Source: Escherichia coli
GTDB lineage: Bacteria; Pseudomonadota; Gammaproteobacteria; Enterobacterales; Enterobacteriaceae
Assembly (NCBI RefSeq): GCF_041886205.1
Contig: NZ_CP169029.1
Strand: one strand, 5' to 3'
Length of the DNA: 64,000 nt
Shown: in pieces, positions 57,766-61,840 of the stretch
Position numbering within the stretch: the stretch's first letter is position 1
How the letters are laid out: every line of letters begins with the position of its first letter
The notes under the pieces: model-generated
Told to the model about the DNA's origin: nothing
Databases searched by the model: none
The model's input: only the letters and a program-made list of their open reading frames with translations
Program-made: the position numbers and the translations under genes

Positions 57766-59430
57766 ATGTGTTCAATTTTTGGCGTATTCGATATCAAAAC
57801 AGACGCAGTTGAGCTGCGGAAGAAAGCCCTCGAGCTGTCACGCCTGATGCGTCATCGTGGCCCGGACTGGTCCGGTATTTATGCCAGCGATAACGCCATT
57901 CTCGCCCACGAACGTCTGTCAATTGTTGACGTTAACGCGGGGGCGCAACCTCTCTACAACCAACAAAAAACTCATGTGCTGGCGGTAAACGGTGAAATCT
58001 ACAACCACCAGGCACTGCGCGCCGAATATGGCGATCGTTATCAGTTCCAGACCGGATCTGACTGCGAAGTGATCCTCGCGCTGTATCAGGAAAAAGGACC
58101 GGAATTTCTCGACGACTTGCAGGGCATGTTTGCCTTTGCCCTGTACGACAGCGAAAAAAATGCATATCTGATTGGTCGCGACCATCTGGGGATCATCCCA
58201 CTGTATATGGGCTATGACGAACACGGTCAGCTGTATGTGGCCTCAGAAATGAAAGCCCTGGTGCCAGTTTGCCGCACGATTAAAGAGTTCCCGGCGGGGA
58301 GCTATTTGTGGAGTCAGGACGGCGAAATCCGTTCTTATTATCATCGCGACTGGTTCGACTTTGATGCAGTGAAAGATAACGTGACCGACAAAAACGAGCT
58401 GCGTCAGGCACTGGAAGATTCCGTTAAAAGCCATCTGATGTCTGATGTGCCTTACGGTGTGCTGCTTTCTGGTGGTCTGGATTCCTCAATTATTTCTGCG
58501 ATCACCAAGAAATACGCCGCCCGTCGCGTGGAAGATCAGGAACGTTCTGAAGCCTGGTGGCCGCAGTTACACTCCTTTGCTGTAGGTCTGCCGGGTTCAC
58601 CGGATCTGAAAGCAGCCCAGGAAGTGGCAAACCATCTGGGCACGGTGCATCACGAAATTCACTTCACTGTACAGGAAGGTCTGGATGCCATCCGCGACGT
58701 GATTTACCACATCGAAACTTATGATGTGACCACTATTCGCGCTTCAACACCGATGTATTTAATGTCGCGTAAGATCAAGGCGATGGGCATTAAAATGGTG
58801 CTGTCCGGTGAAGGTTCTGATGAAGTGTTTGGCGGTTATCTTTACTTCCACAAAGCGCCGAACGCTAAAGAACTGCATGAAGAGACGGTGCGTAAATTGC
58901 TGGCCCTGCATATGTATGACTGCGCCCGTGCCAACAAAGCGATGTCAGCCTGGGGCGTGGAAGCACGCGTTCCGTTCCTCGATAAGAAATTCCTTGATGT
59001 GGCGATGCGTATTAACCCACAGGATAAAATGTGCGGTAACGGCAAAATGGAAAAACACATCCTGCGTGAATGTTTTGAAGCGTATCTGCCTGCAAGCGTG
59101 GCCTGGCGGCAGAAAGAGCAGTTCTCCGATGGCGTCGGTTACAGTTGGATCGACACTCTGAAAGAAGTGGCGGCGCAGCAGGTTTCTGATCAGCAACTGG
59201 AAACTGCCCGCTTCCGCTTCCCGTACAACACGCCAACCTCAAAAGAAGCGTATCTGTACCGGGAGATCTTTGAAGAACTGTTCCCGCTTCCGAGCGCCGC
59301 TGAGTGCGTGCCTGGAGGTCCTTCCGTCGCGTGTTCTTCAGCTAAAGCTATCGAATGGGATGAAGCGTTCAAAAAAATGGACGATCCATCTGGTCGTGCG
59401 GTTGGTGTTCACCAGTCGGCATATAAGTAA
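57766..59430 (+). CDS. asnB: Asparagine synthetase B (glutamine-hydrolysing)
   Basis: 554 aa from MCSIFGVFDIKTD (Ntn amidotransferase Cys2); ORF-track start 12 nt upstream rejected. Confidence 0.95.
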   Translation: MCSIFGVFDIKTDAVELRKKALELSRLMRHRGPDWSGIYASDNAILAHERLSIVDVNAGAQPLYNQQKTHVLAVNGEIYNHQALRAEYGDRYQFQTGSDCEVILALYQEKGPEFLDDLQGMFAFALYDSEKNAYLIGRDHLGIIPLYMGYDEHGQLYVASEMKALVPVCRTIKEFPAGSYLWSQDGEIRSYYHRDWFDFDAVKDNVTDKNELRQALEDSVKSHLMSDVPYGVLLSGGLDSSIISAITKKYAARRVEDQERSEAWWPQLHSFAVGLPGSPDLKAAQEVANHLGTVHHEIHFTVQEGLDAIRDVIYHIETYDVTTIRASTPMYLMSRKIKAMGIKMVLSGEGSDEVFGGYLYFHKAPNAKELHEETVRKLLALHMYDCARANKAMSAWGVEARVPFLDKKFLDVAMRINPQDKMCGNGKMEKHILRECFEAYLPASVAWRQKEQFSDGVGYSWIDTLKEVAAQQVSDQQLETARFRFPYNTPTSKEAYLYREIFEELFPLPSAAECVPGGPSVACSSAKAIEWDEAFKKMDDPSGRAVGVHQSAYK

Positions 59431-59438
59431 GAAATGCG

Positions 59439-59476
59439 AAACAGCCCCGGTGAAATCCGGGGCTGTTTCAATTATT
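59439..59476 (+). terminator. Intrinsic terminator after asnB
   Basis: aaacagccccgg-tgaaat-ccggggctgttt followed by an AT-rich tract. Confidence 0.6.
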
Positions 59477-59741
59477 GAGGTGCCTGTTGATTCTGATATG
59501 CAGTAAGGAAATGTTCCGGGTTTGCCACATCACTGTTTGACAACTCATCACTGTAGGCCAGTATTTCATAGATTAATTTCCCACCACTATTGTTGAATTC
59601 CGAATTTCATCCTGTACGACAAAAGAATGGCTGTAGGGTGGGGAAAAAACACAAAGTAAACAATAATTGACGAATATAGCGCCACGCTGTTCGCAACCTA
59701 ACCAAACAGTCACTTTCGAGCAATTTTCCTTGAAAAAGAGG

Positions 59742-59770
59742 TTGACGCTGCAAGGCTCTATACGCATAAT
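59742..59770 (+). promoter_or_regulatory. Sigma-70 promoter of the metT tRNA operon
   Basis: -35 ttgacg, 17-bp spacer, -10 cataat, then GC-rich discriminator gcgcccc (typical of stringently controlled stable-RNA promoters) and an A/T-rich UP-like region upstream; about 40 nt before the first tRNA. Confidence 0.6.
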
Positions 59771-59808
59771 GCGCCCCGCAACGCCGATAAGGTATCGCGA
59801 AAAAAGAT

Positions 59809-59885
59809 GGCTACGTAGCTCAGTTGGTTAGAGCACATCACTCATAATGATGGGGTCACAGGTTCGAATCCCGTCGTAGCCACCA
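59809..59885 (+). tRNA. metT: tRNA-Met (elongator, anticodon CAU)
   Basis: 77-nt cloverleaf ending CCA; anticodon loop ctCATaa read directly. Confidence 0.95.
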
Positions 59886-59893
59886 TCTTTTTT

Positions 59894-59978
59894 GCGGGAG
59901 TGGCGAAATTGGTAGACGCACCAGATTTAGGTTCTGGCGCCGCAAGGTGTGCGAGTTCAAGTCTCGCCTCCCGCACCA
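59894..59978 (+). tRNA. leuW: tRNA-Leu (anticodon UAG)
   Basis: 85-nt class II tRNA with long variable arm, ending CCA; anticodon loop ttTAGgt. Confidence 0.95.
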
Positions 59979-60001
59979 TTCACCAGAAAGCGTTGTACGG
60001 A

Positions 60002-60076
60002 TGGGGTATCGCCAAGCGGTAAGGCACCGGTTTTTGATACCGGCATTCCCTGGTTCGAATCCAGGTACCCCAGCCA
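60002..60076 (+). tRNA. glnU: tRNA-Gln (anticodon UUG)
   Basis: 75-nt tRNA tggggtatcgccaagcggtaagg...cca; anticodon loop ttTTGat. Confidence 0.95.
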
Positions 60077-60110
60077 TCTTCTTCGAGTAAGCGGTTCACC
60101 GCCCGGTTAT

Positions 60111-60185
60111 TGGGGTATCGCCAAGCGGTAAGGCACCGGTTTTTGATACCGGCATTCCCTGGTTCGAATCCAGGTACCCCAGCCA
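60111..60185 (+). tRNA. glnW: tRNA-Gln (anticodon UUG), identical copy
   Basis: Identical to the glnU copy, including its 5' leader. Confidence 0.95.
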
Positions 60186-60200
60186 TCGAAGAAACAATCT

Positions 60201-60277
60201 GGCTACGTAGCTCAGTTGGTTAGAGCACATCACTCATAATGATGGGGTCACAGGTTCGAATCCCGTCGTAGCCACCA
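60201..60277 (+). tRNA. metU: tRNA-Met (elongator, anticodon CAU), second copy
   Basis: Identical to the metT copy. Confidence 0.95.
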
Positions 60278-60324
60278 AATTCTGAATGTGTCGAATATGT
60301 TCGGCAAATTCAAAACCAATTTGT

Positions 60325-60399
60325 TGGGGTATCGCCAAGCGGTAAGGCACCGGATTCTGATTCCGGCATTCCGAGGTTCGAATCCTCGTACCCCAGCCA
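60325..60399 (+). tRNA. glnV: tRNA-Gln (anticodon CUG)
   Basis: 75-nt tRNA; anticodon loop ttCTGat. Confidence 0.95.
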
Positions 60400-60436
60400 A
60401 TTTATTCAAGACGCTTACCTTGTAAGTGCACCCAGT

Positions 60437-60511
60437 TGGGGTATCGCCAAGCGGTAAGGCACCGGATTCTGATTCCGGCATTCCGAGGTTCGAATCCTCG
60501 TACCCCAGCCA
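60437..60511 (+). tRNA. glnX: tRNA-Gln (anticodon CUG), identical copy
   Basis: Identical to the glnV copy. Confidence 0.95.
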
Positions 60512-60517
60512 CATTAA

Positions 60518-60550
60518 AAAAGCTCGCTTCGGCGAGCTTTTTGCTTTTCT
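60518..60550 (+). terminator. Intrinsic terminator of the tRNA operon
   Basis: agctcgc-ttcg-gcgagct followed by ttttgcttttct. Confidence 0.7.
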
Positions 60551-60556
60551 GCGTTC

Positions 60557-60655
60557 ATTCAATGTCGAATGCGATGTTGACACGTCTTATCCTTCAATGT
60601 CGGATGCGACGCTGCCGCGTCTTATCCGACCTACGGTTGGCACGCATCCGGCAAT
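60557..60655. repeat. REP/BIME cluster between tRNA operon and ubiF
   Basis: tcggatgcgacgctgccgcgtcttatccgacctac and related copies seen directly. Confidence 0.65.
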
Positions 60656-60664
60656 GTTGTAAGG

Positions 60665-61840
60665 CTACAACCCTAACGCATATTTCAGCGCCTGACGTTT
60701 CAACACGCCAGCACGCTCCGCCGCCATTAACCCGAGATTACGCATAAAACGCAGTGGTGGCAGATTATTGCTGAATCCGGCATAAAACAGATCCATACCG
60801 CTTTGCATAATGAAGTTATCCGCCATGCGCCGCATCTGGTAGCGCTTGAGGACAGGATAACTGGCCCACGCTTCGCCGTAGCTGCGGGCATTCACCAGAA
60901 CATCAATCAGGGCATCGACATCACGATAACCAAGATTCACCCCCTGCCCCGCCAGCGGATGGATGGTATGCGCGGCATCGCCCACCAGCGCAAGCCCCGG
61001 CTGCACATACTGCAACGCATGTCGGCGCGTCAGCGGAAACGCACCAGCGGCAAGCGGTGTAACGTAACCCAGACGCGACGGGAAATGCTTCGCGATTTCC
61101 GCCTGGAGTTGCGCCATATTCATATTCTGCAACTGGCGAATACGCACCGGAGAGTCATACCACACCAGCGATGCCCAGTTATCAAACAACGGCAGAAACG
61201 CACGCGGTCCGTCCGGGGTAAATTGCTGCCAGGTGCTGTCGCCGGGATCGTTCTCACACTGTACGCTAATCAACATACACGACTGCGCATACTGCCAGGC
61301 ATGAACGCCAATTCCCGCCATCTGCCGCACCTGCGAATTTGCGCCGTCAGCACCAATCACCAGCTTCGCGCGAATCACTTCACCGCCCTTCAGTTCCAGC
61401 TCCTGAAGATCATTATCTCGATGTAATGCAATCAGCGAGTCTGGCACACGTAACGTTACTTTCGGATGAGCTTCCAGCGCCTGCCACAATGCCTGTTGCA
61501 GGACGGTGTTTTCCACCATATAGCCAAGCAACGGTAGCTTAAGTTCAGCGGCGTCAAACACCACATGCGCCGTTTCCCACTCCCACGTTTCCAGTCTGCG
61601 GTAAGGATGGCAACGCATAGCCTGTACTGCATCCCAGACCCCTAACCCTTTAAGCAATGATACCGATGCGGCGCTGATCGCCGAGATCCGCACGTCCGGT
61701 TGGCTATCAGCGACAAACGGTGCAGGTTCTGCGTGCTCGATCACCGTTACCGAAAATCCGTGCTGTGCCAGCCCCAGCGCCAGCGCGCCGCCGACCATTC
61801 CTCCGCCGACAATGGCAATTTCCGTTGGTTGATTTGTCAT
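60665..61840 (-). CDS. ubiF: Flavin-dependent ubiquinone-biosynthesis hydroxylase (2-octaprenyl-3-methyl-6-methoxy-1,4-benzoquinol hydroxylase)
   Basis: 391 aa from MTNQPTEIAIVGGGMVGGALALGL (FAD GxGxxG); UbiH/UbiF/VisC family. Confidence 0.93.
   Translation of the reverse strand: MTNQPTEIAIVGGGMVGGALALGLAQHGFSVTVIEHAEPAPFVADSQPDVRISAISAASVSLLKGLGVWDAVQAMRCHPYRRLETWEWETAHVVFDAAELKLPLLGYMVENTVLQQALWQALEAHPKVTLRVPDSLIALHRDNDLQELELKGGEVIRAKLVIGADGANSQVRQMAGIGVHAWQYAQSCMLISVQCENDPGDSTWQQFTPDGPRAFLPLFDNWASLVWYDSPVRIRQLQNMNMAQLQAEIAKHFPSRLGYVTPLAAGAFPLTRRHALQYVQPGLALVGDAAHTIHPLAGQGVNLGYRDVDALIDVLVNARSYGEAWASYPVLKRYQMRRMADNFIMQSGMDLFYAGFSNNLPPLRFMRNLGLMAAERAGVLKRQALKYALGL

Follow-up and report, generated by a model that had tools for sequence, protein, structure and literature searches.

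The metT-leuW-glnUW-metU-glnVX operon of Escherichia coli, its processing and its essentiality are already known and have been in the literature for decades. A full-length transcript with the seven tRNAs and the terminator has been detected by northern blotting, RNase E is the main remover of the metT operon terminator and also separates the last three tRNAs, and RNase P separates the five upstream tRNAs and makes the mature 5′ ends, with the 3′ ends being finished by RNase T, PH and D (Mohanty and Kushner, PMC2241853). In the same work, a retained terminator was found to inhibit RNase P, and an intermediate of ∼125 nt (‘band VI’) was identified as metT with an unprocessed 5′ end. The operon was placed there in the secG-leuU pathway, in which RNase E removes the terminator and RNase P then acts; secG-leuU is an mRNA-tRNA co-transcript with a contribution from RNase G, whereas removal of the metT terminator is seemingly RNase G-independent (PMC2241853). 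In a systematic deletion study the transcription unit is listed as essential and holds all CAU (elongator Met), UAG, UUG and CUG copies (PMC11480407); as the sole source of elongator tRNA-Met, tRNA-Leu(UAG) and both tRNA-Gln isoacceptors, the operon is therefore essential. These published experiments establish that there is a single transcript, in which order it is processed and that the unit is essential. Here, we describe a tRNA array in a 64-kb window of E. coli DNA (the whole stretch that was analysed) and compare it with this operon.

Identity of the locus

The array occupies positions 59809–60511 (+ strand) and comprises seven tRNA genes in the order Met(CAU)-Leu(UAG)-Gln(UUG)x2-Met(CAU)-Gln(CUG)x2, which are called by both ARAGORN and Rfam; no other tRNA lies in the window. 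All seven score between 57.6 and 71.1 bits against Rfam RF00005 (gathering score 29) with model positions 1–71 of 71 covered, and the 3′ CCA is encoded in each. The genes are as follows, each being supported by ARAGORN, Rfam and the MG1655 annotation, and from glnW onwards also by pairwise comparison:

59809–59885 (+), metT, elongator tRNA-Met(CAU), 77 nt
59894–59978 (+), leuW, tRNA-Leu(UAG), 85 nt
60002–60076 (+), glnU, tRNA-Gln(UUG), 75 nt
60111–60185 (+), glnW, tRNA-Gln(UUG), sequence identical to glnU
60201–60277 (+), metU, elongator tRNA-Met(CAU), sequence identical to metT
60325–60399 (+), glnV, tRNA-Gln(CUG), wild-type anticodon
60437–60511 (+), glnX, tRNA-Gln(CUG), sequence identical to glnV

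The supE44 amber-suppressor allele is an anticodon change in glnV; as the glnV anticodon is the wild-type CUG, the array is not the supE44 allele. Open reading frames that overlap the array on either strand are short and mechanical, and a CDS is annotated there in no record examined.

The flanking context was checked along with gene folding and scores, and no evidence against identification as the metT operon was seen. A 1,101-bp query around the array finds 100% identity in several E. coli chromosomes, with asnB upstream and ubiF downstream, and at least 80% of this query is present in one place in 5,265 of 5,426 complete E. coli genomes. The synteny is nagC-nagD-asnB upstream of the array, with a convergent ubiF and then miaB downstream, and the MG1655 record names metT through glnX in the same order (b0673–b0664). 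Gene order, anticodons, strand relationship, the neighbours asnB and ubiF, promoter and terminator are all the same as in the K-12 operon. A K-12 derivative has the same seven tRNA sequences, and only four differences from it are found in 861 bp, none within a tRNA: the leader A-run is two A shorter here, the metT-leuW spacer is one T shorter, and one G/A difference lies in the metU-glnV spacer. Over the 1,101-bp query, the window is 100% identical to non-K-12 isolates, e.g. LHM10-1. The locus is the E. coli metT-leuW-glnUW-metU-glnVX operon itself and not a mere lookalike.

The initial annotation, made from the sequence alone, had described a known operon with this gene order and these anticodons; ARAGORN and Rfam both reproduce them, the order and names match the MG1655 record, and failed tRNA calls or other anticodons, which it had named as grounds for rejection, were seen with neither program. 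The interval that it gave, 59742–60550, starts exactly with the −35 hexamer and stops exactly where the terminator tail does, and its claim that the operon is known is borne out by the MG1655 annotation and the published characterization (PMC2241853, PMC11480407). We regard it as practically certain that the locus as a whole is the essential metT operon, in which one stable-RNA-type sigma-70 promoter serves seven tRNAs that are followed by an intrinsic terminator.

Identity within the gene pairs

The two Met copies agree at 77/77 positions, the two Gln(UUG) copies at 75/75 and the two Gln(CUG) copies at 75/75, in agreement with the three identical pairs noted initially. Gln(UUG) and Gln(CUG) genes differ from each other at 7 of 75 positions, which lie in the anticodon and, as paired changes, in the stems of the anticodon and T arms.

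Orthologous arrays in other Enterobacterales all start with Met-Leu-Gln(UUG)-Gln(UUG), preceded by a core promoter that is invariant among them, and all lie downstream of asnB or, in Morganellaceae, of nag genes. The same seven genes are called by ARAGORN in Klebsiella and Enterobacter, whereas the distal part varies beyond these genera: Yersinia has six genes with Met-Gln(CUG), i.e. a single Gln(CUG), Providencia has six with Met-Gln(UUG), the last Gln being UUG, and Arsenophonus has five with Gln(CUG) only and no second Met. In Klebsiella, T16C is present in both Met genes; in Yersinia, the same 4 changes are present in both Met genes and the same 8 changes in both Gln(UUG) genes, such that the within-species differences between paralogs are zero for Klebsiella Met, Yersinia Met and Yersinia Gln(UUG). 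Homogenization is imperfect, as Providencia paralogs differ by 1–3 nt (the Met copies by 3) and the Arsenophonus Gln(UUG) copies by 3. Paralogs that are the same within a species and different between species are the pattern of concerted evolution, and the substitutions compared here indicate that the gene pairs evolve in this manner, via putative gene conversion or unequal crossing-over with turnover.

Purifying selection might instead hold the pairs identical on its own, with neither gene conversion nor unequal crossing-over, given that tRNAs are very strongly constrained and that the single-copy leuW likewise has one and the same sequence in E. coli, Klebsiella, Enterobacter and Arsenophonus. 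We consider this improbable, as both paralogs share lineage-specific substitutions, each of which would have to arise twice independently, and as unequal recombination between the copies is visible directly in the E. coli population, as described below. Concerted evolution is the reading that we prefer.

One of the orthologous arrays departs from its relatives. In Enterobacter hormaechei CP103578.1 (locus L011, 2132–2206), 10 of 75 positions differ between the seventh gene, a second Gln(CUG), and the gene beside it, which is the case for none of the other adjacent Gln pairs examined. This record is labelled a 517-kb IncFIB/IncHI2A plasmid, yet has the chromosomal synteny asnB-tRNA-ubiF-miaB. 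Several PLSDB ‘plasmids’ that carry the operon are of chromosome or chromid size (hundreds of kb to ∼5 Mb), and the multi-Mb ones look like mislabelled chromosomes.

Copy-number variation among E. coli genomes

Departures from the seven-gene array were sought in ∼5,400 complete E. coli genomes with junction-specific queries, of which the canonical locus covers only ∼70–77%. The junctions and the numbers of genomes that carry them are:

metU-spacer-Gln(CUG)-terminator, one CUG copy, 152 genomes
leuW-spacer-Gln(UUG)-spacer-Met, one UUG copy, 71 genomes
spacer-Gln(CUG)-spacer, three or more CUG copies, 29 genomes

A few percent of the complete assemblies thereby depart from seven genes, although some of these may be assembly errors. 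The versions seen range from 5 to 11 genes: CEA106S has five (Met-Leu-Gln-Met-Gln), FDAARGOS_1370 and 0H15 have six each, K-12 GM4792 has ten with five tandem terminal Gln genes (Gln(CUG), going by the expansion query), and Origami2-DE3 has eleven with three tandem Gln genes after leuW and a duplicated Met-Leu-Gln block. Taken together, the junction searches and the example loci point to ongoing unequal crossing-over in the array. Selection for tRNA-Gln dosage or suppressor genetics among laboratory lineages may underlie the expansions in GM4792 and Origami2-DE3; alternatively, these may be assembly errors.

Queries centred on the tRNAs match one genome fewer than those that contain the flanks, and the CEA224S chromosome (NZ_CP166080.1) has the flank match only. 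In this ‘complete’ assembly (locus L004, 3040–3130), the promoter and leader …GCGAAAAAAAAGA are fused directly to the terminator CATTAAAAAAGCTCGC…, with all seven tRNAs missing and both breakpoints at most 1 nt from metT G1 and from the glnX CCA end. The assembly appears to be without any Gln or elongator Met tRNA gene; because the unit is essential (PMC11480407), the loss is most likely an artefact of assembly or curation. CEA106S, with its collapsed five-gene version, is a sister assembly of CEA224S from the same source.

Promoter and 5′ leader

The classic stringently regulated tRNA promoter is that of tyrT, the precursor of which starts at the G of …CCCCGC. In MG1655, the promoter of tyrT (tyrT-tyrV) reads TATGAT-GCGCCCCGC-TTC-CCGATAAGG. 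The elements identified upstream of metT are:

59720–59741 (+), A/T-rich stretch upstream of the −35 hexamer, GCAATTTTCCTTGAAAAAGAGG (sequence)
59742–59747 (+), −35 hexamer TTGACG (promoter scan; GTTGAC invariant in 8 taxa)
59765–59770 (+), −10 hexamer CATAAT, 17 bp past the −35 hexamer (promoter scan; GCATAAT invariant in 8 taxa)
59771–59779 (+), GC-rich discriminator GCGCCCCGC (invariant in 8 taxa; the same 9-mer follows the tyrT −10)
59778–59808 (+), 5′ leader of ∼31 nt, removed by RNase P (8-taxon alignment, tyrT comparison)

The two hexamers match the consensus at 10 of 12 positions and constitute the only promoter-like site found by the promoter scan in 59000–61200, such that the −35, 17-bp spacer, −10 and GC-rich discriminator of the initial annotation are all recovered. 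The conservation of this region was followed in an alignment of the 170 nt that precede the first Met gene in 8 taxa of three Enterobacterales families, namely E. coli (two strains), Klebsiella aerogenes, K. pneumoniae, Enterobacter hormaechei, Yersinia pseudotuberculosis, Providencia alcalifaciens and Arsenophonus nasoniae. Invariant are GTTGAC, GCATAAT, GCGCCCCGC and the greater part of the 14 nt that follow (AACGCCGAT-AAGGT), whereas outside Enterobacteriaceae the 17-bp spacer is free to diverge, as is the DNA upstream of about −45. Conservation of the core while spacer and upstream DNA vary provides strong evidence for TTGACG-17-CATAAT as the functional promoter. The AAAAA run that adjoins the −35 hexamer is also invariant in the 8 taxa, and the A/T-rich stretch at 59720–59741 is a possible UP-element-like region.

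The discriminator GCGCCCCGC directly after the −10 is identical in tyrT and metT, and CCGATAAGG is common to both within the first ∼15 transcribed bases, with the block offset by 1 nt; the hexamers differ (TTTACA/TATGAT in tyrT, TTGACG/CATAAT in metT). The discriminator shared with tyrT and the invariant core make assignment of the metT promoter to the stringent-type sequence class well supported, and in this sense the term ‘stringent-type’ used initially holds. As for regulation by ppGpp itself, a literature search, PMC1183518 included, found no direct ppGpp or stringent-control experiment on the metT promoter, and it is from the likeness to tyrT that we infer stringent (ppGpp/DksA) control, in which repression would act through the GC-rich discriminator.

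Two further upstream features were noted. Escherichia, Klebsiella and Enterobacter have the block GCTGTTCGCAACCTAACCAAACAGTCAC at 59686–59713 of the window (∼−92 to −65) in identical form, whereas the other genera aligned do not. A candidate Fis site, GTTCGCAACCTAACC at 59689–59703, centred near −82, fits the degenerate GNNYRNNWNNYRNNC, but was set aside as approximately one chance match is expected in the intergenic region.

By analogy with tyrT, the metT transcript probably starts at G59778, which gives a leader of 31 nt; a leader of this length is compatible with the published ∼125-nt intermediate. The early leader AACGCCGATAAGGT (roughly +3 to +16) is near-invariant across genera from Escherichia to Arsenophonus, and its conservation in the 8-taxon alignment is well above that of the adjacent promoter spacer. 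That the AACGCCGATAAGGT block, with its CCGATAAGG core, is an uncharacterized cis-element with a function of its own in stable-RNA transcription units, and not just a passive neighbour of the discriminator, is conceivable on these sequence grounds, though rather doubtful; if so, it might tune open-complex lifetime or promoter escape, or guide 5′ processing. Earlier comparative studies of stable-RNA promoters may already have recorded the motif. In E. coli the leader could form a 5-bp hairpin, CGATA-AGG-TATCG, which was rejected as its 3′ arm is broken in Klebsiella and Enterobacter.

Termination and processing of the transcript

Downstream of glnX, two elements complete the unit:

60512–60516 (+), A/U-rich single-stranded linker CAUUA, from the glnX CCA to the terminator stem (sequence, fold)
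60517–60550 (+), Rho-independent terminator AAAAAGCUCGC-UUCG-GCGAGCUUUUU followed by GCUUUUCU (terminator scan, fold)

The terminator hairpin (60517–60542) lies 6 nt past glnX and has 11 pairs and a UUCG loop, followed by GCTTTTCT. Its fold has an energy of −17.9 kcal/mol (z = −3.6), with 0 of 200 shuffles being as good. The scan (11 pairs) and the folding (−17.9 kcal/mol) thereby both return the clean intrinsic terminator of the initial annotation. The A/U-rich linker between the last CCA and the terminator hairpin is a trait that the metT operon has in common with secG-leuU, and CAUUA is likely to be the zone of RNase E entry or cleavage, the exact site being predicted from the sequence.

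The two distal spacers are the longest, at 47 nt (68% A+T) for metU-glnV and 37 nt (59% A+T) for glnV-glnX, and the proximal spacers measure 8–34 nt; spacer length and A+T content may be linked to the choice of nuclease, with RNase E acting distally. The sequence elements and the published processing together give the following course. A strong stable-RNA-type sigma-70 promoter yields one transcript, with a probable start ∼31 nt upstream of metT, that spans the seven tRNAs and ends at the intrinsic terminator 6 nt past glnX. RNase E first removes the terminator and splits the distal tRNAs at the longer, A/U-richer spacers, upon which RNase P cuts each mature 5′ end and 3′ exonucleases trim to the encoded CCA.

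More than one transcription unit, with an internal promoter, e.g. ahead of metU, driving the distal Gln(CUG) genes, is very unlikely. The metU-glnV spacer, being the longest and 68% A+T, and a metU-glnV-glnX species on northern blots (PMC2241853) could be read in its favour; this species is, however, an RNase P product without sequences 5′ of metU, the full-length seven-tRNA transcript is detected (PMC2241853), and the promoter scan finds no other sigma-70-like site in 59000–61200. A single unit read from the promoter upstream of metT remains the preferred arrangement, and the scan is consistent with it in showing one promoter-like site and, downstream, one terminator on the + strand.

Spacers and the layout of the array

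The initial annotation took the operon to be built from duplicated units and called for a comparison of the spacers between them. In the repeat finder, identity ends 0–2 nt from the tRNA borders, and any matches in the flanks are few. Local alignments of all spacer, leader and trailer pairs (21 comparisons, 1,000 shuffles each) gave no significant similarity after correction (0/21), the best having an uncorrected p = 0.025 that stems from an AAAAAAG run common to the leader and the trailer. Duplication is accordingly seen in the mature tRNA sequences only and does not extend to the spacers, the comparison of which returned no significant similarity between units; nothing in the spacers points to a recent duplication of whole blocks.

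Had the array arisen by tandem duplication of a block in recent times (Met-Gln-Gln twice, Leu being inserted), the copies would have had no time to diverge, which would explain the three perfectly identical pairs and the layout Met…Gln-Gln/Met…Gln-Gln, and new duplications do arise, as in the extra Met-Leu-Gln block of Origami2-DE3. Such an event would, however, be expected to carry identity past the tRNA borders, where it stops here with 0 of 21 spacer comparisons significant. The occurrence of the seven-gene order in Klebsiella and Enterobacter and of a six-gene version in Yersinia and Providencia implies a layout that is older than the genera, and 7 positions, compensated stem pairs included, separate the Gln(UUG) pair from the Gln(CUG) pair, all of which leaves a recent duplication with hardly any probability. 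We therefore retain concerted evolution, in which the gene pairs would be homogenized by gene conversion or unequal crossing-over rather than being recent duplicates.

A repeat array of another kind (CRISPR-like, REP/BIME or other tandem repeat), with no more than a resemblance to tRNAs, is of negligible probability. Direct-repeat families of 82 and 87 nt are found, but each unit scores fully as a tRNA and has a sensible anticodon and a CCA end, the spacing is irregular (109, 214 and 112 nt), and thousands of genomes have these genes annotated as tRNAs. The regular spacing and non-genic repeats of a non-coding repeat array are both absent from the array, and the likeness to one is only superficial, as had been remarked initially, every repeat being a complete tRNA for both ARAGORN and Rfam.

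Flanking elements

Two 35-nt units in tandem, TCATTCAATGTCGAATGCGATGTTGACACGTCTTA and TCCTTCAATGTCGGATGCGACGCTGCCGCGTCTTA, are found between the terminator and the ubiF 3′ end (60555–60660 of the window); they are 83% alike and are followed by TCCGACCTACGG…GCATCCGGCA. This region resembles a cluster of REP/BIME-type palindromic elements. On the upstream side, a strong 14-pair hairpin, GAAACAGCCCCGG…CCGGGGCTGTTTC, is located just past the asnB stop (59437–59470 of the window). The scan calls it on the − strand, and from its position it is probably a bidirectional terminator placed to end asnB on the + strand. Approximately 270 bp without an annotated gene separate this hairpin from the metT promoter.

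Implications

The array is an ordinary, known operon, and the detail added here makes it a tidy textbook example rather than a new discovery. This detail consists of the concerted evolution of its gene pairs, the copy-number polymorphism in E. coli, and a core promoter and leader that are invariant across Enterobacterales. As the locus has every copy of four essential anticodons, its copy-number variants could bear on work on tRNA gene dosage, and could also bear on suppressor (supE/supB) genetics.
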